A model generated the notes under the pieces. That model ran no database searches. It was not told where the DNA came from and was given only the letters and a program-made list of their open reading frames with translations. DNA of 64,000 bases from Pirellulales bacterium (GTDB lineage: Bacteria > Planctomycetota > Planctomycetia > Pirellulales > DATAWG01), in NCBI GenBank assembly GCA_035939775.1, contig DASZFO010000312.1:10844-74843 (forward strand). The letters run 5' to 3'. Below, one piece after another: positions 34,775 to 55,144 of the stretch. Position 1 is the first letter of the stretch; the number at the start of each line of letters is the position of its first letter. The translations under genes and the position numbers were made by a program.

Positions 34775-36904
34775 ATGGACCTAAAGCAGGGCACGATGTG
34801 CCAACGCTCAGCCCGCGCATCGCTTCGCGCCGCCGCCATCGTTGCCGTCGTCGCGATCGTTTGCTGGCTGGCGATTCATGCGCACGCCCAAGTCGCCATC
34901 ATGGCGACCGCCGAGGCGACGCCGGACGATCAGGCCAACGCATCCAAGGGGTTTGCGGTTCTCAGGGCCGACAGCAAAATCGTCGAATTGATTGAAGACT
35001 TCAATCGCTACGCCGGTAAGAAATCGTGGGAACTTGCCTTTCGCGCCCTGAACTCGATCGACGAGGCCAACAACCGGGGCATGGTCCCGGCCGGCGACGG
35101 CTTTCTGGTGCCCGTCCGAGCCCGAGTGAAACAATGTCTGCTCCTACTTCCGCCCGAGGGGCGCGAAGCGTATCGGCTGTTCAACGACTCCGCCGCCAAG
35201 CAGCTTTGGGACCGCGTGCAAGACACTCGCGTCCGGATGCCGTCCGACGAGCTGGAGAAGCTGCGCAAGCTCGTTGAAGTCTATTTCCTGACGAGGGTCG
35301 GTGACTTGGCGGCCGATCGGCTGGGGGACGCGCTATTCGAGCAAGGCAACTTCGCCGGCGCGGAACAGATGTGGCGGCTCGTCGTCGAAACCTATCCCGA
35401 TAGCCAATTGCCGATTGCCAAGCTGCAGGTCAAGCGCTGCGCCGCTCTTTCGCAGCTCGGCCGCCGCGATGCGCTGACCGCAGTCGCGGCCCAGGTGCGT
35501 GAGCAGTATGCCGATCAGAAGGTGACGATCGGCGGGCAGGAAGTTGCCGCCGCGGAATTCGCCGAGTCGCTTCTCTCCGGCGGATCGCAAAGCCAGGCGA
35601 AGCCGTCTGCCGATGCCAAGGTGATCCAGTTGCCTGCCGCCGACGAGCCCGTCTGGCAGGTTCGCGTCGTCGGCCCCAACCTGACTGGGATAACCGATCC
35701 TCAAACGGGAATGCCGATGAGTTCGTCGAACCTTCGCACCGTTCCCGGCAGTGCCGTGGACGACAAGCGGTTTTACGGAAATTGGCTGGGAACGATCTAC
35801 GCGGCCGACTTGGAAACGGGAAAGATGCTGTGGCGCACGGGCAAATTCACCGACGCGACCCAACAGGTGACCAATTATCTTCAGCAGGGAGTGTCGCTCG
35901 ATAGTTTCTACTTGGTTTCCGCCGGCAGCAAGCTGCTCGCCATGCGTCAGGGATCGAAGAACCTGCTCGGTGAGCTGCTCGGCGGCCAATCGGGGCAAGA
36001 CAACAATCTGCACCTCGAATGTTTGGATGCCGCTTCGGGCAAGACGGTTTGGAGCATTCGCGGACTGGGGCAAACGATTGTCTCCGTCCCTTACGTCGTG
36101 GATGGCGTCGCGTATGCTGCCGCCATTGCGGCCAACAATTCGACCATGAACTTGGTTGCGATCAGCATGACTACGGGGCAATTGCAGTGGCAGGTGCAGC
36201 TCGGGACTCCGCAAAACACCAGAAATTGGCGCGGTGGCTTGACCTTCGGCGGCCCGAGCATGCTCGCCGTCGGTGGAATGCTGTACGTGGCGACGAACAA
36301 CGGCGCGTTTCTGGCCATCGACCTGGCCAGCCATCAGGTGGAATGGGCGCTTAAGCACGATACTAAGCCTCCCACGGACAACCAGCGATTCTGGTTCAAC
36401 GGCATGATGGTGACTCCGGTGGAAGCCCCGGGCACGCTGCTCGACGACAACGGAGTGTTTTATCTGAAGGACGGCTCGGCGAGTTTGCTCTACGCGCTCG
36501 ATCCTACGGCACCGAGCGTTAAGTGGAAACGGCCGATTTCCGCCGACGAATCGGTTGCCGCGATCGATGGACAAACGGCCTATCTTCTGGGGCATGAGTT
36601 GTCGGCGCTCGATCTGAAATCGCGAAAGCTGCTTTGGAGCACCAAGATTCCCGGCGAGAACGTCGCACTCAAGCCGCTGGCATGCCCCGAGCACGTCTTC
36701 GTGCCGACGGCCCGCGGAATCTTCGATATCGATCCTGCCAATGGCGATATCCGCCGCGTGTTCCGCGGCGCGGATCGCGAGTCGGGCCTCTGCCGGTTAT
36801 TGCTGGCCGGCGACAAGCTGATCGGGATCAGCGACACGGCGGTGACGGCCTATCCGATCCGGCGCGAGAAGACGACCAAGCTGAACTCGCAGGCGACGAA
36901 ATAG
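34775..36904 (+). CDS. Exported TPR + PQQ-like beta-propeller (BamB-like) protein
   Basis: Signal peptide; helical N-half; repeated ADLETGKMLW, LDAASGKTVW, LDLKSRKLLW blades; RBS GGAGG before ATG 34775. Confidence 0.78.
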   Translation: MDLKQGTMCQRSARASLRAAAIVAVVAIVCWLAIHAHAQVAIMATAEATPDDQANASKGFAVLRADSKIVELIEDFNRYAGKKSWELAFRALNSIDEANNRGMVPAGDGFLVPVRARVKQCLLLLPPEGREAYRLFNDSAAKQLWDRVQDTRVRMPSDELEKLRKLVEVYFLTRVGDLAADRLGDALFEQGNFAGAEQMWRLVVETYPDSQLPIAKLQVKRCAALSQLGRRDALTAVAAQVREQYADQKVTIGGQEVAAAEFAESLLSGGSQSQAKPSADAKVIQLPAADEPVWQVRVVGPNLTGITDPQTGMPMSSSNLRTVPGSAVDDKRFYGNWLGTIYAADLETGKMLWRTGKFTDATQQVTNYLQQGVSLDSFYLVSAGSKLLAMRQGSKNLLGELLGGQSGQDNNLHLECLDAASGKTVWSIRGLGQTIVSVPYVVDGVAYAAAIAANNSTMNLVAISMTTGQLQWQVQLGTPQNTRNWRGGLTFGGPSMLAVGGMLYVATNNGAFLAIDLASHQVEWALKHDTKPPTDNQRFWFNGMMVTPVEAPGTLLDDNGVFYLKDGSASLLYALDPTAPSVKWKRPISADESVAAIDGQTAYLLGHELSALDLKSRKLLWSTKIPGENVALKPLACPEHVFVPTARGIFDIDPANGDIRRVFRGADRESGLCRLLLAGDKLIGISDTAVTAYPIRREKTTKLNSQATK

Positions 36905-36935
36905 AGTCATCGTGTTGGCGATCCAGGAGCGACCT

Positions 36936-37808
36936 ATGAACAAGCAGCTACAGATTCTGCAACTCACTCGAATCGCTCGCTGGCTGGCAAGGCCGATTGC
37001 CGCAGTGACGACGCTAGCGATCGTCTCCGCGGCGCTGGCCGACGAGGGGATCGTCGTCCGCGGCAGCGGCTCGGCGACGGGCCGGCCGACGCAAATCGAG
37101 ATGTCGGCAACGCTCAGCGCCGAGGCCGAGTTGGCCGCCGATGCGAGCGTGAAATTTCGCGATGCCAAGAAGCGGGCTCTGGCCGCGATCGCCGGCCTGA
37201 AGAATCCCGACCTCTCGATCGTTCCGGGAGGCGTCTCGGTGGGTAGCGGCGCCGATGCCAACACCCAAATGATGATTATGCGCGGCATGGCGGTGCCGAA
37301 CACGACCCAGAAAGTTCGGCTCACCGAAACCAGTCGCATCGTCCTCGCCCACGCCGATAAACTCGAACCGGATGAGTTGCTCGACAAACTGCTCAAGATT
37401 CTCGACGTGGCCAAGGACGCGGGCTTTCAAATCGGTCCCGCTCCCGCGACAAATTATTTAGAGATGCAGCTCCGCGCCCAGGAAGGGGGCGAGGGAGGCG
37501 CCACGGTGTCGTTCAAGCTGCCCGATAGCACGGCCCTGCGCGAGAAGGCTTACGAAGCGGCCATCGACGACTCGCGAACCAAGGCCCAGAAGCTGGCCGA
37601 ATTGTCGCGTGCCAAGCTGGGGCGGATCTTGTCGGTGCATGAGGAGGGATCGGGCAAATCCGATTCCGACGTGGCGCCGATGATCATGTATTTTTACGGC
37701 GCCCTGGGGAACAAAGGTGCGGCGGAGGACAAGTCGCTCTCCAACTCGACCTCCGGCGATCTTACGCTGCACGTCAATTTGACCGTGCAATTCGAAATGG
37801 CAAAGTAG
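36936..37808 (+). CDS. SIMPL (DUF541/BP26) domain protein, paralogue 1
   Basis: Signal peptide; IVVRGSGSATGRP, LREKAYEAAIDDSRTKAQKLA, KLGRILSV, LTVQFEM. Confidence 0.78.
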   Translation: MNKQLQILQLTRIARWLARPIAAVTTLAIVSAALADEGIVVRGSGSATGRPTQIEMSATLSAEAELAADASVKFRDAKKRALAAIAGLKNPDLSIVPGGVSVGSGADANTQMMIMRGMAVPNTTQKVRLTETSRIVLAHADKLEPDELLDKLLKILDVAKDAGFQIGPAPATNYLEMQLRAQEGGEGGATVSFKLPDSTALREKAYEAAIDDSRTKAQKLAELSRAKLGRILSVHEEGSGKSDSDVAPMIMYFYGALGNKGAAEDKSLSNSTSGDLTLHVNLTVQFEMAK

Positions 37809-37844
37809 ATTCAAATTGATGCTTGAATAAGAAGGGACGGGCAG

Positions 37845-38693
37845 ATGAGTAAGCGCTCTCGAAATCTCGCCCGCAATTGCGCCGTGTACTTGCTCGCAAA
37901 TACGCTCTTGGCGCTTTCTGTCGCGTCGGAGGCTCGCGCCGCGCAGGGCGTGGAAGGGATCGTCGTGCAAAGTACCGGCTCTGCCTCCGCCCGCCCGACT
38001 CAGGTCGAGATGTCGGCGAAACTTGCCGCCGATGCGGAACTGGCCGCTGACGCGGCCGTCAAATTCCACGACGCCAAGAAACGCGCCCTCGCGGCGTTAG
38101 CCGCGTTGAAAAACTCCGATCTGTCGGTGACTCCCGGCGGCGTTACCGTCGCCGCTAGCCTCGATGCGAATTCCCAGCAGATGTTGGCGATGCGCGGCAT
38201 CTCGGCCGGAACGACGAACCAGAAGGTGCGGATCGCAGAGACCAATCGCATTGTGCTGGCCCATGCCGACCAACTCGAACCGGAAGAATTGCTGGCGAGC
38301 CTGCTGAAGATTCTCGATGTCGCCAAGGACGCTGGTTTCCAGTTCACCTTGCCGCCAACGAACGACTATTACGAGATGCAAGCCCGGGCGCAAGAGGGGC
38401 AGGTGGTTTTTTTGTTCAAGCTCCCCGATAGCACTATTTTGCGCAAGAAGGCGTACAAGGCCGCCATCGAGGATGCGAAAGCCAAGGCCCAAGAATTGGC
38501 CGACCTATCTTCGACCAAGTTGGGGCGCATCTTATCCGTGGTAGAGGGACCGGGAGGCAACATGCAGAGGGTTGTTTACTACAACTCGGCGATGAATCAA
38601 GCCGGCGGCGACGACAATGCGCTTACGAGCGTTTCCTCCGCAGAGGTCACGCTGCGGGTCAATCTGACCGTGCAATTCGAGATCGCGAAATGA
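37845..38693 (+). CDS. SIMPL (DUF541/BP26) domain protein, paralogue 2
   Basis: Same motif set (AAIEDAKAKAQELA, KLGRILSV, LTVQFEI); clearly homologous to the preceding gene. Confidence 0.78.
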   Translation: MSKRSRNLARNCAVYLLANTLLALSVASEARAAQGVEGIVVQSTGSASARPTQVEMSAKLAADAELAADAAVKFHDAKKRALAALAALKNSDLSVTPGGVTVAASLDANSQQMLAMRGISAGTTNQKVRIAETNRIVLAHADQLEPEELLASLLKILDVAKDAGFQFTLPPTNDYYEMQARAQEGQVVFLFKLPDSTILRKKAYKAAIEDAKAKAQELADLSSTKLGRILSVVEGPGGNMQRVVYYNSAMNQAGGDDNALTSVSSAEVTLRVNLTVQFEIAK

Positions 38694-38719
38694 GTTTTGT
38701 GGAGAGTAAAGGAGTAAAC

Positions 38720-39763
38720 ATGAAATCCATCTGCGGAACTCTGCTGGCCATCTCCGTCCTGTATATCGGCGCATCGTCCGCGCTGGCTCAAGACATCCTT
38801 CCCAAACACATCACGCCGCAAGCGCAAACCGCCATCAAGAAGGGCCTCGATTTCCTGGCCAAAACCCACAGCGAAGACGGCTCGTTCTCCGGCGACCCAG
38901 GCGGCCAGGCCTATCCCGTGGCCATGACGGCGCTCGCCGGCATGGCCTTCTTGGCCAACGGCAACACCCCGTCGCGCGGTCCTTACTCCGACCACGTCGC
39001 CAAGATCGTCGAATATCTGACGAACAACGGCCAGCCGAGCGGACTGATCAGCAGTGCTTCACAGGAGCAAGGCATCTCGATGCACGGGCATGGCTTCGCG
39101 CTGCTATTTCTAGCTTCCTGTTACGGCATGGAGACCAACGACCGGATGCGCGACCGGATGAAAAAGGTCATCAACAAAGCCATTCACTTGACGGCCAGCT
39201 CCTCGTCGAACGGCGGTTGGTCTTATACTCCCGGCACCGGGGACGAAGGCTCGGTGACCGTGACGCAGATCCAAGGCCTCCGCGCGGCGAGCAACGCCGG
39301 TTTCACGGTCCCCAAGGGGGCCATCGAAGGAGGCGTTCACTATTTGGAAATGTGCAAGACGCCGGAGGGAGGCATCTGCTACCAGCTTGGCTTCAACAGT
39401 GGACCGCGCCTGCCGATTTCCGCCGCCGCGATTGCCACGCTGTACAACGCCGGTGAATACGATTCGAAGCTGGCCGACTCGTGTCTGGCGTATGTCAGCC
39501 AACAGTTCGAAGTCCACAAAGGCACGTTCGACAAAGGGGGCGGGCACAACTACTACACCCATCTCTACGCCGCCCAGGGCTTCTACCAGGCCGGCGACAA
39601 ATACTGGGACGGCTACTTCCCCGGCGCCCGCGATCAACTGATTAAACTGCAGTCCGGCGACGGTTCCTGGCCCGGCGACTTCATCGGCCAGACCTACGGC
39701 ACGAGCATCGCCTTGATTATCTTGCAGCTTCCTTACAAGTATCTGCCCATTTATCAGCGCTAG
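38720..39763 (+). CDS. Secreted prenyltransferase/squalene-oxidase-repeat (alpha/alpha barrel) protein
   Basis: Signal peptide ..SALA; QW-like repeats GLDFLAKTHSEDGSF, NGGWSY, LQSGDGSW; C-terminal YLPIYQR. Confidence 0.8.
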   Translation: MKSICGTLLAISVLYIGASSALAQDILPKHITPQAQTAIKKGLDFLAKTHSEDGSFSGDPGGQAYPVAMTALAGMAFLANGNTPSRGPYSDHVAKIVEYLTNNGQPSGLISSASQEQGISMHGHGFALLFLASCYGMETNDRMRDRMKKVINKAIHLTASSSSNGGWSYTPGTGDEGSVTVTQIQGLRAASNAGFTVPKGAIEGGVHYLEMCKTPEGGICYQLGFNSGPRLPISAAAIATLYNAGEYDSKLADSCLAYVSQQFEVHKGTFDKGGGHNYYTHLYAAQGFYQAGDKYWDGYFPGARDQLIKLQSGDGSWPGDFIGQTYGTSIALIILQLPYKYLPIYQR

Positions 39764-39773: not shown

Positions 39774-40829
39774 GTGACCACCGAGATCGAAACTGAAGAA
39801 GACCTCGCCGGACTCGAGCGGCTCCGCTCGGCACGCGATTCGATTCGCCAGCAGATGGCCGGCACCATCGTCGGTCAGGAAGATGTGGTCGAGCAATTGC
39901 TCGTTTGCCTCTTCGCCCGCGGCCACTGCATCCTCGAAGGGGTGCCTGGGCTGGCCAAGACGTTGATGATCCGCACGCTCGCTCAGTGCATGTCGTTGGA
40001 TTTCAATCGCATCCAATTCACGCCCGACCTGATGCCTTCCGACATCACGGGAACGGACGTGATGTACGAGGACCGCGGCTCGGGGGACCGAACTTTCAAA
40101 TTCATCCGCGGACCGATCTTCGCGAACGTGCTTTTGGCCGACGAAATCAACCGCACGCCGCCGAAAACGCAAGCCGCGCTCCTGGAAGGAATGGCCGAGC
40201 GGCAGGTTTCCGTCGGCGGCGAGCGGCATCATTTGCCCGATCCATTCTTCGTGCTCGCCACGCAGAATCCGATCGAGCAGGAAGGGACCTACCCGCTGCC
40301 CGAGGCCCAGTTAGATCGGTTCCTGATGAAGGTGCTCGTCCGCTATCCGAGCGAACACGAAGAGCGGAGCATCTATCGGCTCACTTCGACTGGCAATCCG
40401 GTCGCGCCGACACAGGTGCTCAGCGGCGAGGAGATGCTCGCGCTGCAACGGATCGTACACAAGGTGCCGGTGAGCGATTATTGCGTCAACTATGTGGCGA
40501 ATCTGGTTCGCTCGACTCGGGCCGGCGATCCCAAGGCCCCGCGGTTCATCAAGGACTGGGTGCTTTGGGGAGTCGGGCCGCGCGGCGGGCAATCGCTGAT
40601 CGCGGCGGCGCAGGCTCGAGCCGCGCTCGATGGCCGCCCCGAGGTGGACGTGAGCGATATTCAGGCGATGGTCGCCGCGGTGCTGCGGCATCGGATCGTG
40701 CTCAACTACAACGCCGAGGCCCAGGGGCAAACGGCGGAAACGGTCATTCAAAAACTCGTCGATGCGATTCCGCTCGACCGCGCCGCGGAGCAAGCCCATG
40801 AGCGAATCGGTCACGTACTTAAAGCCTGA
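39774..40829 (+). CDS. moxR: MoxR-family AAA+ ATPase
   Basis: GVPGLAKT, RIQFTPDLMPSDITG, LADEINRTPPKTQAALL, ATQNPIEQEGTYPLPEAQLDRF. Confidence 0.95.
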   Translation: MTTEIETEEDLAGLERLRSARDSIRQQMAGTIVGQEDVVEQLLVCLFARGHCILEGVPGLAKTLMIRTLAQCMSLDFNRIQFTPDLMPSDITGTDVMYEDRGSGDRTFKFIRGPIFANVLLADEINRTPPKTQAALLEGMAERQVSVGGERHHLPDPFFVLATQNPIEQEGTYPLPEAQLDRFLMKVLVRYPSEHEERSIYRLTSTGNPVAPTQVLSGEEMLALQRIVHKVPVSDYCVNYVANLVRSTRAGDPKAPRFIKDWVLWGVGPRGGQSLIAAAQARAALDGRPEVDVSDIQAMVAAVLRHRIVLNYNAEAQGQTAETVIQKLVDAIPLDRAAEQAHERIGHVLKA

Positions 40830-41781
40830 AATCCTTGCCCGGATCGTGCCGCTCGGGTTGCGAGCGCAGCGCGTCGTCGAAGGGACGATGTCGGGGCTGC
40901 ACCGCTCGCCGCTGCACGGGATGAGCGTCGAGTTCGCCGACTACCGCGAATACACGCCCGGCGACGATCTCAAGCGCCTCGATTGGAGAGCCTACGCTCG
41001 CTCGAACCGCTATTATATAAAGCGGTACGAGGAAGAGACGAACTTCCGGGCGACCCTGTTGCTGGATGCCTCCGCGTCGATGCGTTATGGCCGGGCCGCC
41101 GCGCGGGGCGAAGGGGGCTTCACCAAATTCGACTACGCCGCCACGCTCGCCGCCTCGCTGGCCATGCTCTGCGTCAAGCAGCGCGATGCAGTTGGACTCG
41201 CGCTGTTCGACAACGCCGAGCGCTCGTGGCTGCGCCCCTCGGCGGCCCAGTCGCAGATGATCAAGATTCTCGATGCGCTCGAATCGGCCCGCCCCGACCG
41301 CACGACCGATCTCGGACTCGTGCTCAACAAAGTGGCCGCTCAGATCAATGCCCGCGGGCTGGTGATCGTGATCTCCGATCTGCTTTGCGACCTCGACGCG
41401 CTATATCAAGGTCTCGGCCGAGTGCAGCATCAAGGTCATGACGTTCTCATCTTTCACGTGTTGGACGAGGAAGAGATCGAATTGCCGTTCAACGACTCGG
41501 TGCTGTTTCGCGATATCGAAGGGAGCGAGGAGATCTTCGCCGAGCCGTGGGCCTTTCGCCAGGAATATAAGCGGGCAATGGAGGATTTCATCGACGACGT
41601 CGGCAACCGCTGCCGCGCGGCCGGGATCGACTACACGCTCTTGACGACGTCCGATGATTTGGGGCAAGGGATGGCCCGCTATCTGCACCAGCGGCAGAGC
41701 ATGGCAGGCCGGCGGATCGGCAAAATCACGTCCTCGTCTCACGAATATGCCGCCCCCCCGCCGCACGGAGGCGAGGCATGA
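40798..41781 (+). CDS. DUF58 (vWA-like) protein
   Basis: GLHRS, EFADYREYTPGDD, LDW, DASASM MIDAS-like, VISD; start ATG 40798. Confidence 0.9.
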   Translation: MSESVTYLKPEILARIVPLGLRAQRVVEGTMSGLHRSPLHGMSVEFADYREYTPGDDLKRLDWRAYARSNRYYIKRYEEETNFRATLLLDASASMRYGRAAARGEGGFTKFDYAATLAASLAMLCVKQRDAVGLALFDNAERSWLRPSAAQSQMIKILDALESARPDRTTDLGLVLNKVAAQINARGLVIVISDLLCDLDALYQGLGRVQHQGHDVLIFHVLDEEEIELPFNDSVLFRDIEGSEEIFAEPWAFRQEYKRAMEDFIDDVGNRCRAAGIDYTLLTTSDDLGQGMARYLHQRQSMAGRRIGKITSSSHEYAAPPPHGGEA

Positions 41782-43916
41782 CTTTTATGGCCGGATCGCT
41801 GCTCGGCGGGCTGGTGCTGGCCTCCGTGCCGATCATCATCCACATCCTGAATCGGCGACGGTTCCAGATCATCGATTGGCCGCCGATGAAATATCTCAAG
41901 CTCACGCTCAAGCGGAACCGCCGCCGCATCCGCATCGAGCAGATGATCCTGCTGGCCATGCGCACCCTGGCGGTGATCCTATTGATTCTGGCGATCGCCC
42001 GGCCAGTGATCCCGCAAAACGGGCTGGCCGCACTCTTTCCCGGCCGCAGTCGAACGAGCCACTTGATCGTGATCGACGATTCGCTCTCGATGGGCTACAC
42101 GACGGCCGGGCGCTCGGCCTTTCAGGTCGCGCAAAATGCAGCCGCCGATTTGCTCAAACTGGCCGGTACGCAGGACAGCGTGACGCTCATGGTAACATCC
42201 GCGCCGGATCGGCCGCTTGTGCGCGACGGCAGCTTGCAAGATGCCGCGAAGTTTTCCGACCTTGTCGCCGGGCTTTCGCTCACCGACACGCCGAGCAACT
42301 GGGCCGTGACGCTCGACGGCGTGAATGCGGCCCTCTCGACCGCCATCTATTCCGATAAGGAGGTCGTGATAATCACCGACCTGCGGCGCTCCGGATGGTC
42401 GAAAGACGTGACCCGCGTGGCCAACGACCTGGCAGCCGAGCGAATTCCGCTGCGGATTCTCGACGTCGGAGATCGCCGGACGGATAACGTCGCGCTGATG
42501 AAGTTCGAGTTGGAAGATGCGATTCCCTTGCCCGATCAGCCGATCCATCTGGCGGCCGAAATCCGCAACCACACGGCCGCCACGATCGCCGGCGCGCAGG
42601 CCACGCTCAGCGTCGATCGCGACAGCCGGCCAGTGCTGCTCCCCGATCTGCCCTCGGGCGCGAGCACGAATGTGCCGCTCACGCTGACGCTCGACTCGCC
42701 CGGACCGCACGCGATTTCGCTCGCGTTGGGGAAAGACGCACTGCCGCAGGACGACGTGCGGTATCTGAGCCTCGAAGTCCGCCCCACCGTCTCCGTGCTG
42801 CTGATCGACGGTGCGCCGTCGGCGCAAAAGTTCGAGTCGGAAACCGATTTCTTGGCGCTGGCCTATTCGGTTGGCGCTCGGCCGTGGAGCGTGGAGCGGA
42901 TCAGCCAATTCGATCCGCGGCGGTTGGTTCCCGGCGCGGCCGATGTGCCCGACGTGTTGGTGCTGGCGAACGTCGCATCGTTGACGGCCGAGCAGGCCGC
43001 GGCCGTCGAGCGGCTCGTGCAACGCGGGATGGGACTGATGATCTTCAGCGGCGATCTGGTCGACGTGGACCTGTACAACCAACGGCTCTATCGCGATGGC
43101 CGCGGCGCATTGCCGGCGAAGCTCGATCGACCGGTCGATACGCCCGCCACGGGGATCGTCGTCGAAAAGGATCCGCAGTCTCCCTTGGCTCCGCTGGCCA
43201 AGCTGGTTCCGGAGTCGCTGGCCCGGATTCATGCCAACCAGTATACGACGGTCCAATTCAGTACGCCGCCGCCGGAAGGCGTGAGCGTGTTGGCACGCTG
43301 GAACAATTCCGAGAATCCGCCCGCCGTGGTGCAAAAGGTGTTCGGCAAGGGGCGCGTGCTGCTCTTCACCTGCACGGCAGGCAAGAAATGGACCGATTGG
43401 CCCCTCGATCCGACCTATCTGCTCGCGGTTCGCTCGGCGGCCCTGGCGATTGCCCGCAGCCAGGAAGCCGGCGGCGCGATCGCGGCCGGCGAGGCGATTC
43501 GCGTGCCGCTCGACAATAACCAGGCGGCCCTCGATCCGAAGATGACGATTCCGGGCAAGACCGCGCCCGATTCGGTCGAGATCGAGAAGCCCTCGCCGAA
43601 CTCGAGCTTGCTGCGCTACGGCAAAACTTACCACTCGGGGATTTACACGCTCTCGTGGCGCGATGAGCGGTCGAACCCTCGTTCGCTGCGCTTCGCCGTC
43701 AATCCGCCGCCGAGCGAAAGCGATCTCGATCCGCTCTTGGAACCTCAACTGACCGAGCTGCTCGGCAATCTCAAGCCGACCATCCAGCGCTACGACACGA
43801 GCGGCGCAAGCCTCAGCACCCCGCCTCGCGAAATCTGGCGCCCGCTGGCCACGATGCTGCTGGGGCTGCTAGGGTTGGAAGCAGTCTTCGCCGTCTGGGT
43901 GGGAAGAGAACGATAG
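41778..43916 (+). CDS. BatA N-terminal + vWA + GATase-like membrane protein
   Basis: PIIIHILNRRR, LAIARP, DDSLSM MIDAS, ITD, C-terminal ESDL and TM (EIWRPL...EAVF). Confidence 0.85.
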   Translation: MTFMAGSLLGGLVLASVPIIIHILNRRRFQIIDWPPMKYLKLTLKRNRRRIRIEQMILLAMRTLAVILLILAIARPVIPQNGLAALFPGRSRTSHLIVIDDSLSMGYTTAGRSAFQVAQNAAADLLKLAGTQDSVTLMVTSAPDRPLVRDGSLQDAAKFSDLVAGLSLTDTPSNWAVTLDGVNAALSTAIYSDKEVVIITDLRRSGWSKDVTRVANDLAAERIPLRILDVGDRRTDNVALMKFELEDAIPLPDQPIHLAAEIRNHTAATIAGAQATLSVDRDSRPVLLPDLPSGASTNVPLTLTLDSPGPHAISLALGKDALPQDDVRYLSLEVRPTVSVLLIDGAPSAQKFESETDFLALAYSVGARPWSVERISQFDPRRLVPGAADVPDVLVLANVASLTAEQAAAVERLVQRGMGLMIFSGDLVDVDLYNQRLYRDGRGALPAKLDRPVDTPATGIVVEKDPQSPLAPLAKLVPESLARIHANQYTTVQFSTPPPEGVSVLARWNNSENPPAVVQKVFGKGRVLLFTCTAGKKWTDWPLDPTYLLAVRSAALAIARSQEAGGAIAAGEAIRVPLDNNQAALDPKMTIPGKTAPDSVEIEKPSPNSSLLRYGKTYHSGIYTLSWRDERSNPRSLRFAVNPPPSESDLDPLLEPQLTELLGNLKPTIQRYDTSGASLSTPPREIWRPLATMLLGLLGLEAVFAVWVGRER

Positions 43917-46548: not shown

Positions 46549-46583
46549 CGGCGCGGGTCAATGCCAATGCCGGGGAATAGGAC

Positions 46584-47117: not shown

Positions 47118-47355
47118 TTGATCCACCGAGTTCCTTTCAGAACAGAGTCGGCTGCTGGGGCGATGGTGAAGTTGTAGGCCTTGCAATCCTACTGAATTGA
47201 ACGCCTGATTCCGCAAGGGATTGTCATTTTTTTTGGCCGATCGCGGGCATTCTTTTTGCGCCCTAAACCCAAGGGCCGTTCTTCTGGTGCAGCAATTCGG
47301 ATGCCGTGGCTCGAGTAAACACAGTTCAGAACGATTTATTAATTCGCGATTACTC

Positions 47356-47586
47356 CTAGGCTCCCCCCGAGGCGGCTTCCACGTCAATAATGAACTCCGT
47401 GCCCGCCTCCGTCGGAATCGCGTCGCCCGCCTCACGGCAGTCGTCAATATAAAGTTCCATCGCTTCGCGGGCATTGTCGAGCACCTCGGCCCGCGTGTCT
47501 ACCTGACTGATGCAACCGGGCGGCGTCGCAGCGCTGACGACGTATCGGCCGTCTTGCTCCTGCTCCAAAGCAACTGTGTATCGCAG
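47356..47586 (-). CDS. hicB: Orphan HicB-like antitoxin, possibly decaying
   Basis: (CTG)RYTVALEQEQDGRYVVS..PGCISQVDTRAEVLDNAREAMELY; start is CTG behind GGAGAAG; no HicA seen. Confidence 0.65.
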   Translation of the reverse strand: MRYTVALEQEQDGRYVVSAATPPGCISQVDTRAEVLDNAREAMELYIDDCREAGDAIPTEAGTEFIIDVEAASGGA

Positions 47587-47643
47587 TCGATTCTTCTCCG
47601 GCGTTTGGCTGGACCGATATCTGCGCCGAGTATTCTACCTTGT

Positions 47644-47786
47644 GACGCGGCCGGCGGCCACGCGGCGACAGGCAACTCGTCTCTGCCCCAACGGGGCTAC
47701 GCCCTCCAGGCATACTCGGCGTAGGCCGAGGCGGCCAACGCCGGGCTGGAGGGCGCAACGAGTTTTCATAGAAGGAACGCCGCGTC
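47644..47786. other. Nested long hairpin (structured RNA or REP-derived element)
   Basis: Pairs 47644-51/47779-86, 47674-80/47758-64, 47700-09/47746-55, plus side hairpin GCCCCAACGGGGC at 47685-97. Confidence 0.5.
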
Positions 47787-47926
47787 AACGCACAAAAAAA
47801 AGGGGACGCGACGGGCGCGAACTGCATTTTGCGGCGGATGCCATTCCGGGTCCGCGCCCTGCGGTTCCGAATCCGCTCTTGTTCAATCGCATTTTTGTCT
47901 CGAAATTTCCGGTCCGCGGCGCGGCG

Positions 47927-47936
47927 TGGTATAACT
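47927..47936 (+). promoter_or_regulatory. Extended -10 element, probable leaderless promoter
   Basis: TGGTATAACT a few nt upstream of ATG 47944; no SD sequence. Confidence 0.45.
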
Positions 47937-47943
47937 CCAGGCT

Positions 47944-50112
47944 ATGGCAACGATCGATTCACTATCGCTCGCCGAGCTGCCGCGAATGCAATCCGAGCTT
48001 GTCGCGCGGCTGGTGCGGGTTCGCCGGCGCGTGCGGCTGCGGCTGGTGATCGAGGGGCTGGCGATCGTGCTGGCGGAAGCGGCGGGCCTCGCGCTGTTCA
48101 CGTTTTGGGCCGATCATGCATTTCGACTCGGCGTGGGGGCGCGAATCGGGCTGTTGATCGTCGCCGCCGGCATCCTACTCGTCGAAGCTTGGCGGCGGAT
48201 CTTCGCGCCGTTGCTGATACCGCTGGGGCTAGTGGCGCTGGCTGGGGCGATCGGCCGCAAGACGCACGCCGGCGACGACGGCGATTTGGGGGGACGCGTT
48301 GCCTCTGTCCTGGAACTGCCGGCGCTGCTCGCTGGCCGCACTGCGCCCAGCGCCGCGATGATCGAGCGAGCAGTGCGCCATCGTCACGAGGCGCTAGCGC
48401 GCGTCGATTTCGGCGCCGCGCTCGATCATGCGCGGCTCCGCAAAATGCTAATGCTACTGCTGGCGGCTGTTTTGATCCCGACGTCGCTCGTCGTTGTATT
48501 TCCCGATATGGCGAGCCTCTGGGCGCGGCGGCTGTTTCTCGCCTCGCGCGAGCCGTGGCCGCAAAATACCTACCTGCGAGTCACCGATGACCGCAATGGC
48601 CGAATCCAAGCGCCGCGCGGAGAGCCGTATGTGCTGCGGGCAAGCGCTCGCGACGGGAGCCTAGCCCCCGAGAAGATTCTGCTCACGATCCGCGGCAACG
48701 ATAAGACGAGCGTGCTGATGAAGCAATTCGGCGACAACGATTTCCGCCACGATTTCGCCGTCATCGAGCAGCCGCTCGAATTGGAGTTGGAAGGAGGAGA
48801 CTCCGATTACGGGCCGGTGCTGCTCGATCCGGTCGATCGCCCGCGGATCGTCGGCCTGGAGTTGCAGGCCCAGCACCCGCGGCAAGCAGCGGCCGAGAAG
48901 CACAACTTCAACGGGGGCGACGCCGATCTGAGCTTTCTCGTGAAGACCAAGCTCGCGCTGGGGATCGTTGCGAACGTGCCGCTTCGCGAGCTGCGATTAA
49001 AGTCGCAATCGGCGCATCCGAAGCCGGCCGACCTACGGCGGCTCGACGCGATGAACTATGTCGTTGAATGGATCCAGCAAGGCCCCGCGAAGTTCGATCT
49101 GGAGTTGGTCGCGGAAGACTCGGGATTGGTCTCGCTGCCCGTCCCCGTGAGCATTGGTCTCAAGGTGGATCAGCCGCCGCGCGTGACGATGGCGTATAGC
49201 GGAGTCCGCCAACGGATCACGCCGCAGGCGAAGATTCCGCTGGCGATCGACGCCCGCGACGACTACGGCCTGGCCGCGGTCGGACTGACGATCAAAGACG
49301 AAACTCCCGATCCGATCGATCCAGCAAAACTCGTCGCCCGCAGCTCGCCGCAGCCGCTCTTTCCCGCGAACGGCGCCGCGCCGCCAAAGCCCGACGCGCT
49401 GCCGCCGCAATTGCAGCTCAAACAGACAGTCGACGTGGCGCCAGAAAAGCTGGCCCCCGGTTCGTTCATTTCGGTAACAGCCGAGGCGACCGACGACTGC
49501 TACACCGGCCGTCAGATGAGCCATTCGCGAACGGTCATTTTCGGCATCGTTTCGCCCGAGGATTTGTTCCGTGAGATTCTGCTGCGACAGCAGGCCGAGC
49601 GGATCAAGTTCCGCAAGCAAGAGGAAGAAGCGGAGAAGATTCGCGATCTGATCCAATCGGCCGCCGACGCCAAGCAAGTTGGCGAGATCGCTCGCCGCCA
49701 TCGCGCGTTGCAGCTTGAAACGCTGCGGATCACCACCGTGCTGAACGAATCGCTGACCGAGATCAAGCTGAACGGCCTCGGTTCGCCCGAATCGCATGCC
49801 CTGATGGAGCGCAACGTGCTCGCGCCGCTCAAGGCATTGGCAGACGAGCTGATCGGCCCGCAAACGTCCGCGATGGACGGGCTTGCTCCGGCCAGCGGCG
49901 CGGCGCCCGATCCGGGCAAGATTCGTGCTGCGTTGGATCGGCAGGAGCAGATCGTCAGCCGCATGAAGACGATCCTCCTGCAGATGGCCCAATGGGATAG
50001 CTTTGTCGACGTGCTCAATCAGCTCGACCAGATCATCAAGCTGGAAACGGGCATCAAGGACGGCAGCCAGCAGCTTCAGAAGAAAGAAACCGAAGGTTTG
50101 TTTGACAAATAA
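47944..50112 (+). CDS. Membrane protein with Ig-like and coiled-coil regions (DUF4175-like member of MoxR/vWA clusters)
   Basis: Three N-terminal TMs, PWPQNT, DQPPRV, ARDDYGL, C-terminal coiled coil. Confidence 0.65.
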   Translation: MATIDSLSLAELPRMQSELVARLVRVRRRVRLRLVIEGLAIVLAEAAGLALFTFWADHAFRLGVGARIGLLIVAAGILLVEAWRRIFAPLLIPLGLVALAGAIGRKTHAGDDGDLGGRVASVLELPALLAGRTAPSAAMIERAVRHRHEALARVDFGAALDHARLRKMLMLLLAAVLIPTSLVVVFPDMASLWARRLFLASREPWPQNTYLRVTDDRNGRIQAPRGEPYVLRASARDGSLAPEKILLTIRGNDKTSVLMKQFGDNDFRHDFAVIEQPLELELEGGDSDYGPVLLDPVDRPRIVGLELQAQHPRQAAAEKHNFNGGDADLSFLVKTKLALGIVANVPLRELRLKSQSAHPKPADLRRLDAMNYVVEWIQQGPAKFDLELVAEDSGLVSLPVPVSIGLKVDQPPRVTMAYSGVRQRITPQAKIPLAIDARDDYGLAAVGLTIKDETPDPIDPAKLVARSSPQPLFPANGAAPPKPDALPPQLQLKQTVDVAPEKLAPGSFISVTAEATDDCYTGRQMSHSRTVIFGIVSPEDLFREILLRQQAERIKFRKQEEEAEKIRDLIQSAADAKQVGEIARRHRALQLETLRITTVLNESLTEIKLNGLGSPESHALMERNVLAPLKALADELIGPQTSAMDGLAPASGAAPDPGKIRAALDRQEQIVSRMKTILLQMAQWDSFVDVLNQLDQIIKLETGIKDGSQQLQKKETEGLFDK

Positions 50113-50169
50113 CCCCGGATGGGGGACAATGCTCGGGAACTCTTCAACTCTCGGCTAAGGAGGTGTCGG

Positions 50170-51582
50170 ATGAAGGCCATCTCGCGGCTTGCATTGGGGT
50201 TGATTGGTCTGGCGGCAGTTCTTGCCGCGGGCGCTCGGGGCGCGACGGATGACAAATCCGTCAGCGAGACCGACAAACTGCAATTCACTCAGAAGCAGGT
50301 ACAGGCGCTGATGCAGGAACTGCAAGAGCGCATGTTCCGTCTAGCCGACCTGACTAAGCAAGCCGAGCCCGACAACTCGACTCGCTTGCTGCTCGCGCTC
50401 CGCAAGGCCCGCGAGCAATTGATCGTCGAGGAGATGAAGGAGATTCTGGAAACGCTTAGCAAGCGAGACCTCACGAAGGCGACCGGCGACACCAAGGAAG
50501 TGCTCGTCAAGCTCGACGAGTTGAAGAAGCTGCTCATCGCCACCGATCTGGAATTGCAGCTTCAGCTCGAGCGGCTGCGACAGTTGCAGGCCGCGATCCG
50601 CCAGCTCGATCAGGCGATCAAGGTCGAGAAGCAGCAAAAGGGCGAATCCGCTCGGCTCGCCGAGTTGATGAAGAAGGGAAGCGAGGTCAAGCCGCAATCG
50701 CTCGACAAGGCCAAGCAAGACGAGGCCGCCAATCGCAAGCGGACCGACGGGGTCGCCGGCGCGGTGAAGGCGCTCGGCGGGCTCGATCCGGCCGTTCAGT
50801 CGCTCACGTCGTCCGGTCAATCGATGTCGGGCGCTGAAGGGAGCCTTGGCAGCGGTAAGCCGGGCGACGCCGAGATGCGGCAATCCGACGCCGTGAAGAA
50901 GCTCGCGGAGGCGCGAGCCCTGCTCGAGAAGGAGCGGCAGAAAGTGCTGCAGGAACTCGAGCAGCAGGTCAAGCGCGTGGTGATCGACAACTTACAGGAA
51001 ATGCTCGACCGCCAGACCGCCATCCGCCGCACGACCGAACGCCTCTCGCCGAAACTGGCGAAAGCGCGCGAGGCGCTAATCCAGCTCCAGCAACTTGCCC
51101 CGGCCGAGCAGCGCGTGGCCGCAATTTGCCAGCAGACGCTCGAACTGGTGACCGAGACGGAATTCAGCGTGGCGCTGCCTCCGGCGCTCGAATCGCTCGA
51201 GAAAAACATGCTCTTGGTGAGCGGCAATCTGGCCGGCGGCCGCGGCGACGAACGGATAATCGAAACGGAAGTGGCCATCGAGCAGGATTTGAAGGATTTA
51301 TTAGAGACCTTCAAGGAAATGCCGACCTTCGCCGGCCAATGCGATTCGCAGTGCAGCGGCTGCAAGGGAAACATGAACAAGCTGCTCGCTGAACTCAAGG
51401 TGGTTCGCATGATGCAGTCGCGGGTGAACAAGGGAACGGTCGACGCCAACGGAGAGGCCCGCCGAGCGGCGGCGGTGGCCGAACTGCCGAGCGAACTGCG
51501 CGAGAAGATCGGCAAACTCCGCGACGGCGAGGAGACGACTCGCGACGCCGTGGATCGACTGCACCAGCGATTTGCCGAGTGA
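50170..51582 (+). CDS. Exported coiled-coil protein
   Basis: RBS AAGGAGG before ATG 50170; signal peptide; long heptad helices; CDSQCSGC near the C-terminus; LAELKVVRMMQSRVN. Confidence 0.7.
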   Translation: MKAISRLALGLIGLAAVLAAGARGATDDKSVSETDKLQFTQKQVQALMQELQERMFRLADLTKQAEPDNSTRLLLALRKAREQLIVEEMKEILETLSKRDLTKATGDTKEVLVKLDELKKLLIATDLELQLQLERLRQLQAAIRQLDQAIKVEKQQKGESARLAELMKKGSEVKPQSLDKAKQDEAANRKRTDGVAGAVKALGGLDPAVQSLTSSGQSMSGAEGSLGSGKPGDAEMRQSDAVKKLAEARALLEKERQKVLQELEQQVKRVVIDNLQEMLDRQTAIRRTTERLSPKLAKAREALIQLQQLAPAEQRVAAICQQTLELVTETEFSVALPPALESLEKNMLLVSGNLAGGRGDERIIETEVAIEQDLKDLLETFKEMPTFAGQCDSQCSGCKGNMNKLLAELKVVRMMQSRVNKGTVDANGEARRAAAVAELPSELREKIGKLRDGEETTRDAVDRLHQRFAE

Positions 51583-51604
51583 CCTTAGTTAAGGAGAACC
51601 GATC

Positions 51605-52252
51605 ATGAATTGCGCGAGAAATAGACGGATTTTCGATACCGCGATCGCGTCCGCGACGACTCTTTTTGCCGTCGGAGTTTGGTCCACCGCCGCGATCCAC
51701 GCGGCGGAGGCAGACTCTCCGAAGATTTCCGCAGTCCAGCGGGTCGCGCATGATTTTGATCTGGTCCCCAAGCTGCTCTCGGCGGCGAAAGGGCGCTCGG
51801 AAAGCGATCCGCTCAAGACGATCTCGCGGCGGATGACCGTGGTTCACGGCGACCTGAGCGAGTTTGAAACCGACGAGCCGGTGCAGACTCGGGAGAAGCA
51901 GGTCGTCAGGTCGCTCGACGAGCTGATCGCCGCTCTGGAGCGGCACTGCAACGGCCTCGGCCGCGGAAACCGCCCGAACGGCGGCCGTAGAGACTCGGTG
52001 ATCGCCAGCGGCAATCCGGCGTTTGGCGCGCTGCACGGAGTGGATGCCAACGCGCGGCAATGGGGCCAGCTTCCCGCAAAGCTCCGCAGCGAAATCCTCC
52101 AGTCGAAGACCGATGGGTTCCCACCGGGCTACGAAGCCTTGCTGCAAAGCTACTATCAGCAGCTTGCCGAGGAAAAATCGCTCGACGACAAGCCAGTCAG
52201 CGCGCCGGCGAGCGATTCCAAGCCAGGCGATCCAACGCCCGCCACGAAGTGA
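51605..52252 (+). CDS. Exported hypothetical protein
   Basis: RBS AAGGAG; signal peptide; WGQLPAKLRSEILQ...FPPGYEALLQSYYQQLA. Confidence 0.7.
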   Translation: MNCARNRRIFDTAIASATTLFAVGVWSTAAIHAAEADSPKISAVQRVAHDFDLVPKLLSAAKGRSESDPLKTISRRMTVVHGDLSEFETDEPVQTREKQVVRSLDELIAALERHCNGLGRGNRPNGGRRDSVIASGNPAFGALHGVDANARQWGQLPAKLRSEILQSKTDGFPPGYEALLQSYYQQLAEEKSLDDKPVSAPASDSKPGDPTPATK

Positions 52253-52282
52253 ACTAGTGGAGCTTCAAAGCTCTGATGTTTT

Positions 52283-52359
52283 GGGTGCCATGCCCACGGC
52301 TCGGCGTGGGCATGAGTTGCATCGAGTCATGGCCACTCAGGGCATGGGCCATGGCACCC
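52283..52359. repeat. REP-like doublet (GGGTGCCATG family), copy 1
   Basis: GGGTGCCATG...CATGGCACCC termini with two internal hairpins. Confidence 0.75.
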
Positions 52360-52405
52360 GCCAAATTCAAATTGATGCTCCAATACTGCTGAACGAGAGC
52401 GTTGA

Positions 52406-53884
52406 ATGATTTTCCAATCTCATACTTATGGCTGCAGGAGAAAGGCAGTCGCGACCGCCGCAACGATGGTCGTCGCGATCTCTGGGAATTGGTTTTGTCC
52501 GCAGGCGGCTGGCGCGGACGCGGCCGCCGCGACTCCCGCGCATTCGATTCCCGGTCCAACGGTCAATCTCAGCGTCACGGAATGGGTCGTGTTCGTGGCC
52601 GACGCGGCGAACCCGCAGTTGAACGCCCGGAACCTGTTCCACGACAGCCTTCCGCAATTCGCCGAGGATTTGCGGAAGGCCGACTCAGCCGATAAAGACC
52701 ATCCTTCCGAACCCGGTCCGATCGGCTTGATCCGCTTTTCCGCCGACGGACCGCTCGACAAGGATGCCACGTTCGATGTGCAGCTTAGCTTCAAGCAGGG
52801 GCGAGCGCTCGGGCATTGGCCACGGGCGAAGGTCCGTTCGGCCGGTCTGCTGTGGCAAGACGTGCATCTCGCGCCGGACAAAGGAGAGCCGCGAAAGCTG
52901 GCGGAAAAATCGTGGCTAGCCGATCTTCGCGGCGGTGGGCTGCCGCTGTTGTTCGGCTCGACGCGCGAGTCGTTTCTGCTCTACGACGTGGAGTTTCCGT
53001 ATTCTCTGACGATGCAAGTCAAGGCCGCCGAGGGGGGCAAGTATTCGGTCGCCCACGGAATGGACGCACCGCTCCACGATTTGACGTTCTACAAGCGCGG
53101 TGCCGAGAAACATTGGCGAACGGCCAACCTTCCGAGCCTAGCCAAGGCCGATGGTTTTCCGAAGCAAGCGGCGGCGGCGCCGGCCGCAAAGACGGAGTCG
53201 GCGAGCAACATTGCTCCGGCAGGGACACGAACCGTCGTAATGCAGAAAGTCGCCGCGGGCGGCGTAGTCATCGCTTCGTCGAAGGTCGCCAACCCACAAG
53301 CCCCCAATATCGTCTCCGCTCCCGCTTCGACGCCTTCGGTGGTAACAAAGCCGATCAAGGGGACCGAGATCGCGCTGGGGCCCGCCGCGGAGACCGATGA
53401 GACGGTGCTGGCCCCTTGGCGGGCGAAGTTGGCCGACGCGGGTGTTTTGCCGGCCGATCGGGAAGTGGTCCTCAAGATTCTGGCTCGGCAGGCCCTCGAT
53501 TCCAATCGGTTGACCGCCGTCTATCGAATGGACCCAGCGGAATTGGATCGCATCCTGCCGCTGGAGGTCGTGCCGCAGCCGAAGAAGGTCTCGCGGATCG
53601 CGCTGGTCGTCGTTCGGGGCATAGACCCGGCGATCGGCGACGAGCTGGATCAATTGGTCAAGAAGCTCGGCGATCCATCTTGGAAGACGCGCGAGGCGGC
53701 GACCACGGAGATCAAGAAGCTGGGGGTTCGCGCCAAATCGCGGCTCGAGGAGGCGGCGAAGAGCAAAGACGCCGAAGTCGCCTATCGCGCCGAGCAATTG
53801 CTGGCGGGCATTTCAACCGACGCCGACCAATCGATGGACAGCACCGTGACCGGCGCCGTCCAAGCCATTGGCGGATTCTTCTAG
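52406..53884 (+). CDS. Exported protein with C-terminal HEAT-like repeat
   Basis: EWVVF motif; LVKKLGDPSWKTREAAT...DAEVAYRAEQLL; exact start uncertain. Confidence 0.65.
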   Translation: MIFQSHTYGCRRKAVATAATMVVAISGNWFCPQAAGADAAAATPAHSIPGPTVNLSVTEWVVFVADAANPQLNARNLFHDSLPQFAEDLRKADSADKDHPSEPGPIGLIRFSADGPLDKDATFDVQLSFKQGRALGHWPRAKVRSAGLLWQDVHLAPDKGEPRKLAEKSWLADLRGGGLPLLFGSTRESFLLYDVEFPYSLTMQVKAAEGGKYSVAHGMDAPLHDLTFYKRGAEKHWRTANLPSLAKADGFPKQAAAAPAAKTESASNIAPAGTRTVVMQKVAAGGVVIASSKVANPQAPNIVSAPASTPSVVTKPIKGTEIALGPAAETDETVLAPWRAKLADAGVLPADREVVLKILARQALDSNRLTAVYRMDPAELDRILPLEVVPQPKKVSRIALVVVRGIDPAIGDELDQLVKKLGDPSWKTREAATTEIKKLGVRAKSRLEEAAKSKDAEVAYRAEQLLAGISTDADQSMDSTVTGAVQAIGGFF

Positions 53885-53907
53885 GAAGCTTGAAGGTGAT
53901 CTCGGAT

Positions 53908-53985
53908 GGGTGCCATGGCCACTGCCCCGAGTGGCCTTGCGCCAGCTCAGTTCCATGCCGACCCAAAGCTGTGGGCATGGCACCC
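53908..53985. repeat. REP-like doublet (GGGTGCCATG family), copy 2, inverted relative to copy 1
   Basis: Reverse complement aligns arm by arm with 52283-52359. Confidence 0.75.
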
Positions 53986-54016
53986 GACGTTTCCGAATAG
54001 CACGTTCTTCTAGATC

Positions 54017-55144
54017 CTACTCCGCCAGCAATTTGTCGATCTTCGCCGCGGTGTCTTCCCTCGCGTCGATGAATCGGAGCACTCCCTTCTTATCCACGAG
54101 GAACATCGTGGGGATTCCGCCGACTCCCCATTGCGCGGCCAGCGGGTGCCACGGCTCCTTTTCCGTCTGCGACTCTTCGCGCAACTGCGGCCAAGTCATG
54201 TCCTTGTCCTTGATGAACGTATTGACCGTGTCGTCGTCGCTATCGCAATCCAAGCCGACGATCTCGAACCCCTTGGAGTGATACGTCTTGTAAAGCTCCT
54301 TGATCCGCGGGATTTCGGCGTTGCACGGCCCGCACCAGGTCGCCCAAAAGTCGATGAGCACCACCTTGCCCTTCCAATCGGCGGAAGTAAGCGTTTTGCC
54401 GGTGCTGGTGCGTCCGGCGGCGGCTAGCGGCTTGCCGATCAGCTCGCGCTGGGCTCCGTTTGGGTCGAGTTCGGTGGCGAGCTGCTTGGCCTTTTCGCTC
54501 GTCATCACCTTGCGCAAGACAGCCACGGCTTCCATCGCCACGTCGTCGTTGGCCGGCCCGACGCTGGCCATGACGGCGAGCGTCAGTGCGACCTTTTCGC
54601 TGGCTGGGTTGGCCTTGGCGACGGCGGTGAAGTCGGTCAAGATTTTCTCCTGAGCTTCGGCATTCTTCGAGCCGAGCCACCACTTGCTCAGGACCAGCGC
54701 CGCTTTGGCCGCAAGCGCATTGCTTCCGCCGGCGGCGGTCTTTTCCAAGATCGCCGTCGCGGCATCATCTCCAAGCGTCGCGAGCATCGCCAGATACTGG
54801 CAGCGATCGTCTTCCAATCCCTGTCGCTCGTCAGCATCCTTCTGCGCCGCGGCCAGCTCCTTGAGCAGATCGGCCGTCTGCTGCAATAGGGGCCGCACCT
54901 TCGGGCCATCCTGCTTGCGGAAATCGGCGTCGGTGATCGACGAGATCGAAGGCATCACCGCATCCAACTTCTCCTTGGTCGCGCTCAGCTCGGCGAGGAT
55001 CGCCTTTTCGTCGCGATCTTTCGCCGCGACAGTATCCTTGGCTGCCGGCTCCTTCGCGGCCTGGTCATCCGCGCGGACGGCCACCGCCCCGATTGTCAAT
55101 ACGAGCAAGAATCCCCACGCCATCGTTTTCCGTTTACGGATCAT
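54017..55144 (-). CDS. TlpA-family thiol-disulfide oxidoreductase (exported)
   Basis: KGKVVLIDFWATWCGPC, GIPTMFLVDKKG; signal peptide; start refined to ATG 55144 (GAGG upstream). Confidence 0.9.
   Translation of the reverse strand: MIRKRKTMAWGFLLVLTIGAVAVRADDQAAKEPAAKDTVAAKDRDEKAILAELSATKEKLDAVMPSISSITDADFRKQDGPKVRPLLQQTADLLKELAAAQKDADERQGLEDDRCQYLAMLATLGDDAATAILEKTAAGGSNALAAKAALVLSKWWLGSKNAEAQEKILTDFTAVAKANPASEKVALTLAVMASVGPANDDVAMEAVAVLRKVMTSEKAKQLATELDPNGAQRELIGKPLAAAGRTSTGKTLTSADWKGKVVLIDFWATWCGPCNAEIPRIKELYKTYHSKGFEIVGLDCDSDDDTVNTFIKDKDMTWPQLREESQTEKEPWHPLAAQWGVGGIPTMFLVDKKGVLRFIDAREDTAAKIDKLLAE

Follow-up and report, generated by a model that had tools for sequence, protein, structure and literature searches.

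Operons of the MoxR-DUF58-BatA type are very common, with clients and coupling still to be explained. MxaR, S, A, C, K, and L are described as required to load a periplasmic enzyme with Ca2+ (PMC12276312), NorQ as rotating its von Willebrand factor A (vWA) partner, by which the target is opened (PMC13036017), and Rhizobium RL3499 as important for cell shape and an intact membrane (cited in PMC3893208 and PMC5700661). Here, we describe an operon of this type in a 64,000-nucleotide stretch of DNA from a Pirellulales bacterium (the window; positions 10,844–74,843 of contig DASZFO010000312.1, assembly GCA_035939775.1). Labels beginning with C, G, and L denote contigs, genomes, and DNA stretches or loci, respectively; G000 is the genome and C312 the locus under study. 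The listing and translation of open reading frames (ORFs) revealed 12 plus-strand ORFs from 34775 to 53884, followed by a convergent minus-strand TlpA-like gene (Table 1). The cluster belongs to a real and conserved subfamily of a known yet unexplained operon type and is not a new kind of operon. On balance, with confidence and doubt about evenly matched, we propose that it encodes an ATP-driven machine across the inner membrane that would remodel or assemble periplasmic protein complexes, with subfamily-specific exported adaptors selecting the targets.

The ORFs were named from their translations and from Pfam/NCBIfam profile scans, which identified PQQ_2 with a weak TPR match, 2 SIMPL proteins, an alpha/alpha toroid, AAA_3 MoxR, DUF58, BatA/TIGR02226 with vWA, a second vWA protein, and a weak HEAT_2 match; both coiled-coil proteins and the small protein were without family in these scans. 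From the propeller gene to the BatA gene, the intergenic gaps range from −32 to 36 bp. The Walker A/B motifs and 3 DxSxS metal ion-dependent adhesion site (MIDAS) motifs are intact across the cluster, and the DUF58 MIDAS residues (D90, S92, S94, T170, and D194) are invariant in 39 rows. These features place the operon in the Cmd/Bat/Mxa class: an AAA_3 MoxR with intact Walker motifs, an adjacent DUF58 protein with MIDAS, and a BatA protein with a double transmembrane (TM) segment followed by vWA, accompanied by a second membrane vWA protein.

A first-pass annotation of this DNA had regarded MoxR and DUF58 as cytoplasmic, 2 vWA/GATase-like proteins and 1 coiled-coil protein as membrane-anchored, and 7 proteins as carrying signal-like N-termini, and all of these assignments agree with ours. 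The N-termini of MoxR and DUF58 are not signal-like; signal-like N-termini were called by eye, and a hydrophobicity heuristic was non-discriminating (MoxR passed too). N-terminal hydrophobic helices with basic loops occur in BatA, the second vWA protein, and the first coiled-coil protein, both vWA proteins have C-terminal helices as well, and 11 K/R fall within the 28-residue loop between the N-terminal helices of BatA. Hydrophobic stretches and K/R counts predict a cytoplasmic position for the loop between the N-terminal helices in each vWA protein and for an 80-residue stretch within the stalk protein; the coiled-coil, vWA, Ig-like, and GATase-like regions are predicted to lie outside the cytoplasm.

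The genome contains 5 MoxR-DUF58-BatA-vWA loci (C312, C123, C89, C235, and C353), and 3 of the other 4 include a propeller gene and a stand-alone toroid gene. In a census of 400 Planctomycetota genomes, for which a profile of the second vWA protein served as the marker and 2 candidates were scored per genome, 262 genomes matched at E ≤ 1e-60, and 10 scored above 700 bits, the next best reaching 451. Among these 10 subfamily genomes, 5 have the full gene order, 1 is cut by a contig end, 2 are without the NPCBM gene and the last gene, and 2 are split in three places, with the pieces persisting. The same order is found in G002, G128, G150, G370, G410, and G438 and on plasmid pPL62-3. The operon of G002 is unbroken, with a single SIMPL gene, NPCBM, and TlpA. 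The 81-kb plasmid pPL62-3 (NZ_CP011276.1; L149 and L150) of the cultured Planctomyces sp. SH-PL62 carries the whole subfamily operon, the copy as deposited having frameshifts in the barrel, MoxR, DUF58, and last genes (decay or sequencing error).

A metagenome set of 63 loci, from which 58 at ≥40% identity were kept and the other 5 dropped, revealed the same linkage. All 11 partner genes are present in 13 of the 17 loci with both flanks (11 of 15 once near-identical loci are merged). With enough upstream DNA, the propeller, SIMPL, barrel, and MoxR genes are each found in 20 of 21 loci, one block being inverted (18 of 19 after merging). Downstream, 23 of 25 loci have the first half of the stalk, and the count is 20 of 25 (16 of 21 after merging) for its second half, for the small gene, for NPCBM, and for the last gene. 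These loci are non-independent, because the search patterns came from this subfamily and because of common descent. The TlpA gene accompanies 2 of the 25 loci and G002, although the 10-kb flank may exclude it in a few loci; its linkage is confined to the closest relatives.

Conservation of the accessory genes with the core had been set beforehand as the refuting test of the first-pass annotation, and the propeller, SIMPL, barrel, coiled-coil, small, and last genes are conserved with the core in fixed order. Several of its other claims need amendment. The 12 co-oriented genes are indeed all on the plus strand, but the run is broken by a 1395-bp insert after the second vWA gene; an exported TlpA protein with a WCGPC motif does converge on the cluster end, but it stands outside the conserved unit; and the twin SIMPL genes are present here, but the twinning is not fixed, as the closest relatives (G002 and L046) have 1 copy and others 1–3. 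The suggestion of an undescribed system is not sustained, since the operon type occurs in most sampled Planctomycetota, 5 times in this genome, and is related to published Cmd/Bat/Mxa operons.

SIMPL was detected in 20 of the 400 genomes (E ≤ 1e-20), including 9 of the 10 subfamily genomes, always between the propeller and the barrel; the contig of the tenth stops in the barrel gene. One locus was read in 6 of the other 11 SIMPL genomes: 3 hold a propeller-SIMPL pair on a stretch that lacks MoxR, 1 precedes the MoxR gene of a distant operon, and 2 are on short contigs. Six of 60 close relatives have the SIMPL gene. In the genome under study, contig C52 (L005:4505-12866) carries a MoxR-less propeller-SIMPL-NPCBM-PD40-adaptor cluster, which is an orphan accessory cassette and whose mu-like protein has a ricin-type lectin insert.

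Adjacent cysteines are a feature of PQQ dehydrogenases. The propeller protein of the window does not have this pair, which was seen in 2 of 28 orthologues, and it scores 27 bits against a PQQ-dehydrogenase cut-off of 480; a PQQ dehydrogenase like MxaF was thus ruled out by family score and the missing pair. The barrel is the best-conserved exported part, with a median identity of 61% compared with 33%–39% for the other exported parts. Its model is one (alpha/alpha)6 toroid, for which the nearest Foldseek structures are one-domain squalene-hopene-cyclase-like proteins, AprG, and GH76, and its sequence matches are exclusively prenyl/cyclase-type toroids. DxDD is the protonating motif of class II terpene cyclases. 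None of 26 barrel orthologues has DxDD, and a different acidic motif is common to 25 of the 26; the match is at the fold level only, and a class II terpene cyclase was rejected on the DxDD criterion. Many polar and aromatic positions of the barrel are invariant, and it may be either an enzyme or a tight binder.

The 2 coiled-coil genes correspond to a single 1213-residue paralogue on C123: (i) stalk part 1 aligns with its residues 14 to 757–759 (hhalign 99.7%, 648 columns); and (ii) stalk part 2 matches its residues 771–1204 by profile (E 1e-29), so that the two genes map end to end. The C123 paralogue matches DUF4175 weakly, and the C89 paralogue clears the DUF4175 cut-off. None of 35 orthologues of the stalk protein matched DUF4175 (PF13779) directly; by transitivity, because they are homologous to paralogues matching DUF4175, we regard the 2 genes as a split DUF4175-like stalk. 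Stalk part 2 has a Cys-rich patch near the C-terminus, in which the number of Cys varies among orthologues from none to as many as 9; this patch is a possible reason for the loose TlpA link.

The last protein comprises a predicted mu-homology-like β domain (residues ~52–408) with a variable insert loop (residues ~248–326), followed by HEAT repeats; the latter cover only residues ~409–478, so the first-pass label "HEAT protein" applies to its tail, with a weak HEAT_2 match. The predicted two-lobed β fold spans the whole mu-homology-like domain; the assignment depends on a single predicted model whose scores are borderline, and no match to mu-domain profiles was found in Pfam or among PDB sequences. 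Compared with the mu subunits of AP-1 to AP-4, delta-COP, and the muniscins (Syp1, SGIP1, and FCHo1), the last protein has 5%–13% identity and no Pfam match, and, unlike eukaryotic mu-homology domains, this predicted fold comes with a signal-like N-terminus, helical and variable insertions, and a HEAT tail. Residue 59 is acidic (85% E/D) and residue 397 is Arg (99%); they would lie near the mu2 cargo-residue positions if the range ends are taken without gaps, which is not a residue-level alignment. The insert loop varies from 0 to 327 residues across 146 aligned rows. Among 40 relatives, mostly picked for length, 10 have a recognizable module at the loop position (2 PDZ, 2 LysM, ricin lectin, LamG, WD40, CBM4_9, F5/8, and STN) and 1 has C-terminal ankyrins; the sequences thus display the swapping of binding modules in this loop.

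The last gene was matched at full length in 8 of the 10 subfamily genomes and in none of the 390 others; its C-terminal part or HEAT tail alone was matched in 25 other genomes, some of which have distant full members. Distant mu-like genes occur in tandem, with 3 copies in L139 (G317:C84), which converge on the end of a different MoxR-type operon (coiled coil, small, and NPCBM), and 2 copies in L140 (G261:C341). We consider it doubtful that the last protein is a periplasmic, true homologue of the mu-homology domain of eukaryotic cargo adaptors that carries exchangeable modules for binding glycans or peptides as well as a HEAT tail and acts as the target-selecting adaptor of an ATP-driven MoxR/vWA machine with a TPR-propeller and a SIMPL ring. 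Confirmation of the fold would mean that a domain usually associated with the vesicle coats of eukaryotes is also present in an exported bacterial protein family, with consequences for its use as a eukaryotic signature. The exported mu-homology-like adaptor might be the part that a specialist would not expect.

Table 1. Features of the operon and adjoining DNA (window positions).
Feature	Position	Strand	Evidence or remark
Propeller protein, exported: TPR-like helical region and PQQ/BamB-type beta-propeller, 709 residues	34775..36904	+	PF13360 E 5e-22; TPR_6 weak
SIMPL/BP26-family exported protein, copy 1	36936..37808	+	PF04402 62.5 bits (cut-off 25.2); profile match BP26 4hvz E 1.6e-7
SIMPL/BP26-family exported protein, copy 2	37845..38693	+	PF04402; 57% identical to copy 1
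Barrel: exported single-domain (alpha/alpha)6 toroid	38720..39763	+	AF2 pLDDT 90.7; Foldseek TM ~0.6
MoxR AAA+ ATPase, Walker A/B intact	39774..40829	+	AAA_3 214 bits; 2r44 E 1e-75
DUF58 cytoplasmic vWA-type cofactor with MIDAS	40798..41781	+	PF01882 E 5e-44; 32-bp overlap with MoxR
BatA-type membrane protein: two N-terminal TMs and basic loop, vWA (MIDAS), Ig-like, GATase-like, C-terminal TM	41778..43916	+	PF07584; TIGR02226 73.6 bits
Second membrane vWA protein, BatA-like plan	44113..46548	+	VWA weak; profile match BatB 3ibs E 3e-6; start set from orthologues
Lower-GC insert outside the conserved operon	46549..47943	.	1395 bp; not in L046 or G002
Stalk part 1: membrane-anchored Ig-like and coiled-coil protein	47944..50112	+	hhalign to C123 fused paralogue
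Stalk part 2: exported coiled-coil protein	50170..51582	+	Profile match to C-terminal region of fused 1213-residue paralogue
Small exported protein; present in paralogous operons too	51605..52252	+	
Last protein, exported: predicted mu-homology-like beta domain, variable insert loop, short HEAT tail	52406..53884	+	
Exported TlpA-like thioredoxin, WCGPC motif; probably non-core	54017..55144	-	Neighbour in close relatives only

The insert has a GC content of 0.556 compared with 0.623 in the upstream part of the cluster. It contains a minus-strand ORF of 177 residues (46584–47117) with a signal-like N-terminus, for which profile scans gave no family, and a HicB-like antitoxin ORF (47359–47586, minus strand) with CTG at the start. 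In the canonical operon, the small gene and the last gene are separated by an NPCBM gene, whereas here a 153-bp gap lies between them; the NPCBM orthologue of this genome (57%; 893 residues) is relocated to C297 (C297:23392-26073, minus strand), where, by eye, it sits upstream of an apparent ECF sigma factor and a Ser/Thr kinase. The NPCBM gene is enlarged to ~1650 residues in L045:4896-9827 and L051, with carboxypeptidase-regulatory/Ig repeats in L045; the NPCBM slot is therefore also length-variable. Just upstream of the operon (27118–33851) are Alpha-E, a transglutaminase-DUF2126 fusion, and a second transglutaminase gene, which are not kept beside the operon in the loci read. On the other side, a minus-strand gene at 55390–57711 appears by eye to encode a UvrD/PcrA-like helicase; a 516-residue plus-strand ORF overlying it is without family and is likely a shadow frame.

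The proposed remodelling machine builds on the gene set and its fixed order, the intact motifs of the ATPase and the MIDAS sites, the co-inherited accessories, and module swapping in the last protein. By analogy with NorQD, a MoxR hexamer would grip and rotate the cytoplasmic DUF58 protein, which could then bind conserved basic loops on the cytoplasmic side of BatA, of the second vWA protein, or of the DUF4175-like protein. The movement would pass through the TM helices to the 2 periplasmic MIDAS domains and the coiled-coil stalk, and periplasmic clients might, as in Mxa, be opened, metal-loaded, or assembled. The propeller and the barrel would serve as general periplasmic partners, and SIMPL, which is likely to form a ring or cage, could act with the NPCBM protein and the mu-homology-like protein, whose lectin/LysM/PDZ loop is swappable, to tether the paralogue to particular glycans or peptides. 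The predicted topology fits the cytoplasmic ATPase coupled to periplasmic parts in the ATP-powered trans-envelope complex of the first-pass annotation, but "transport" is less supported than "assembly or remodelling". Several points weigh against such a machine. Any client, interaction, or phenotype of a planctomycete member is hypothetical at present, and the Mxa analogy points to no client, because the propeller, unlike MxaF, is no PQQ dehydrogenase. The distribution of the operon is patchy: 10 of 400 genomes have it, it is split in 2 of the 10, another 2 have neither NPCBM nor the last gene, and in G009 and G036 it is truncated. The MoxR-less cluster on C52 and the propeller-SIMPL pairs away from MoxR in 3 of the 6 other SIMPL loci mean that the accessories may work without the ATPase, and the very high conservation of the barrel could mark it as a central pathway enzyme rather than a partner.

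Less probable, but ahead of the other alternatives, is periplasmic glycan capture or processing, in which NPCBM and the lectin/LysM adaptor bind polysaccharide or peptidoglycan, the barrel is an enzyme, and MoxR/vWA energizes polymer handling. The NPCBM gene in 20 of 25 loci, the 6 of 10 recognized inserts that bind or may bind glycans, and the invariant residues of the barrel, whose fold matches include the (alpha/alpha)6 sugar enzymes AprG and GH76, are consistent with this; however, the conserved unit has no sugar transporter or glycoside-hydrolase gene, all sequence matches of the barrel are prenyl/cyclase-type toroids, and the remaining inserts include peptide binders (PDZ and WD40). A MoxR-powered trans-envelope conduit or secretion device with a channel built from the coiled-coil stalk and a SIMPL ring, the transport option of the first-pass annotation, is unlikely. 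The cluster has long coiled coils, and members of the SIMPL family are described as assembling into a 16-mer cage, in the case of BP26, or a 9-mer membrane channel, in that of Cj0034c (PMC13759207). Against this, the conserved unit has neither an outer-membrane pore nor an exported substrate, and SIMPL occurs in 1 of 20 stretches from other operon subfamilies, so the common machine needs no SIMPL.

Slightly less likely still is a threat-sensing or conflict system in which variable extracellular sensors signal via MoxR-vWA, on the model of the Esr pathway of actinobacteria or the ternary systems of Kaur et al. The hypervariable insert of the last gene, the patchy spread, and the plasmid copy would suit such a role, MoxR clears the bpMoxR cut-off (47.8 bits), and Esr is described as combining propeller sensors with MoxR/vWA. 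Yet the AAA_3 score is far higher than that of bpMoxR, the propeller is a separate exported gene rather than the propeller-vWA fusion given as the defining feature of the class in PMC7159879, the conserved unit has no kinase, FHA, or effector gene, and the wider family has a housekeeping-like spread (262 of 400 genomes). Most improbable is a coat-like membrane-shaping scaffold at the periplasmic face, with the TPR-propeller, HEAT, and mu-homology-like adaptor as a minimal coat and the AAA+ protein as its disassembler. A propeller, helical repeats, and a mu-homology-like fold do come together in one operon, and membrane-coat-like proteins are described in planctomycetes. Eukaryotic coats are cytosolic, whereas these parts all look exported; moreover, the HEAT tail has only ~70 residues, the identity to mu domains is as low as given above, and the adaptor is missing from most sampled planctomycetes. 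The candidates for periplasmic partners that the subfamily provides are few and fixed, and the question of clients and coupling is testable because the subfamily occurs in cultured planctomycetes (the pPL62-3 set, and Caulifigura coniformis, which has a relative of the last gene, Pan44_54210).

Alphaproteobacterial cmd-type operons contain DUF4175/DUF4159. No window protein matched DUF4159, which in this genome is on C353 only; there (L007:982-6949), the paralogous MoxR operon adjoins a divergent DUF4159-containing gene, followed by a gene for an LptD-like outer-membrane protein. As described in PMC5700661, PMC3893208, and PMC5118466, Rhizobium leguminosarum cmdA-D (RL3499-RL3502), with an MRP-type MoxR and an envelope role, has MoxR beside DUF58 and membrane vWA genes, as here. 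By contrast, the present operon has 2 long BatA-plan vWA proteins, a split DUF4175-like stalk, a propeller, a toroid, SIMPL, NPCBM, and a mu-homology-like protein. The Bat operons of Bacteroides, Leptospira, and Borrelia, as described in PMC5700661, share MoxR, DUF58, and the BatA N-terminal double TM with vWA, and the second vWA protein here matches BatB; the periplasmic partners differ, and the window proteins gave no Pfam/NCBIfam match to BatD or SH3-type genes. The best functional analogue is MxaRSACKL of methylotrophs, in which, according to PMC12276312, a MoxR ATPase and several vWA proteins act on a periplasmic target; that client is a PQQ/Ca2+ dehydrogenase, the features of which the propeller here does not have. 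The SIMPL/BP26/YggE family (4hvz and Cj0034c) shares PF04402 above the cut-off; what differs here is the tie to a propeller gene and a MoxR operon. The planctomycete paralogues (C123, C89, C235, and C353; G085, G167, G190, and G252) are mostly without SIMPL and the mu-homology-like gene (each in 1 of 20 stretches, not all of which span the whole operon), and they share with this operon the propeller, toroid, MoxR, DUF58, 2 vWA proteins, stalk, small protein, and often NPCBM.

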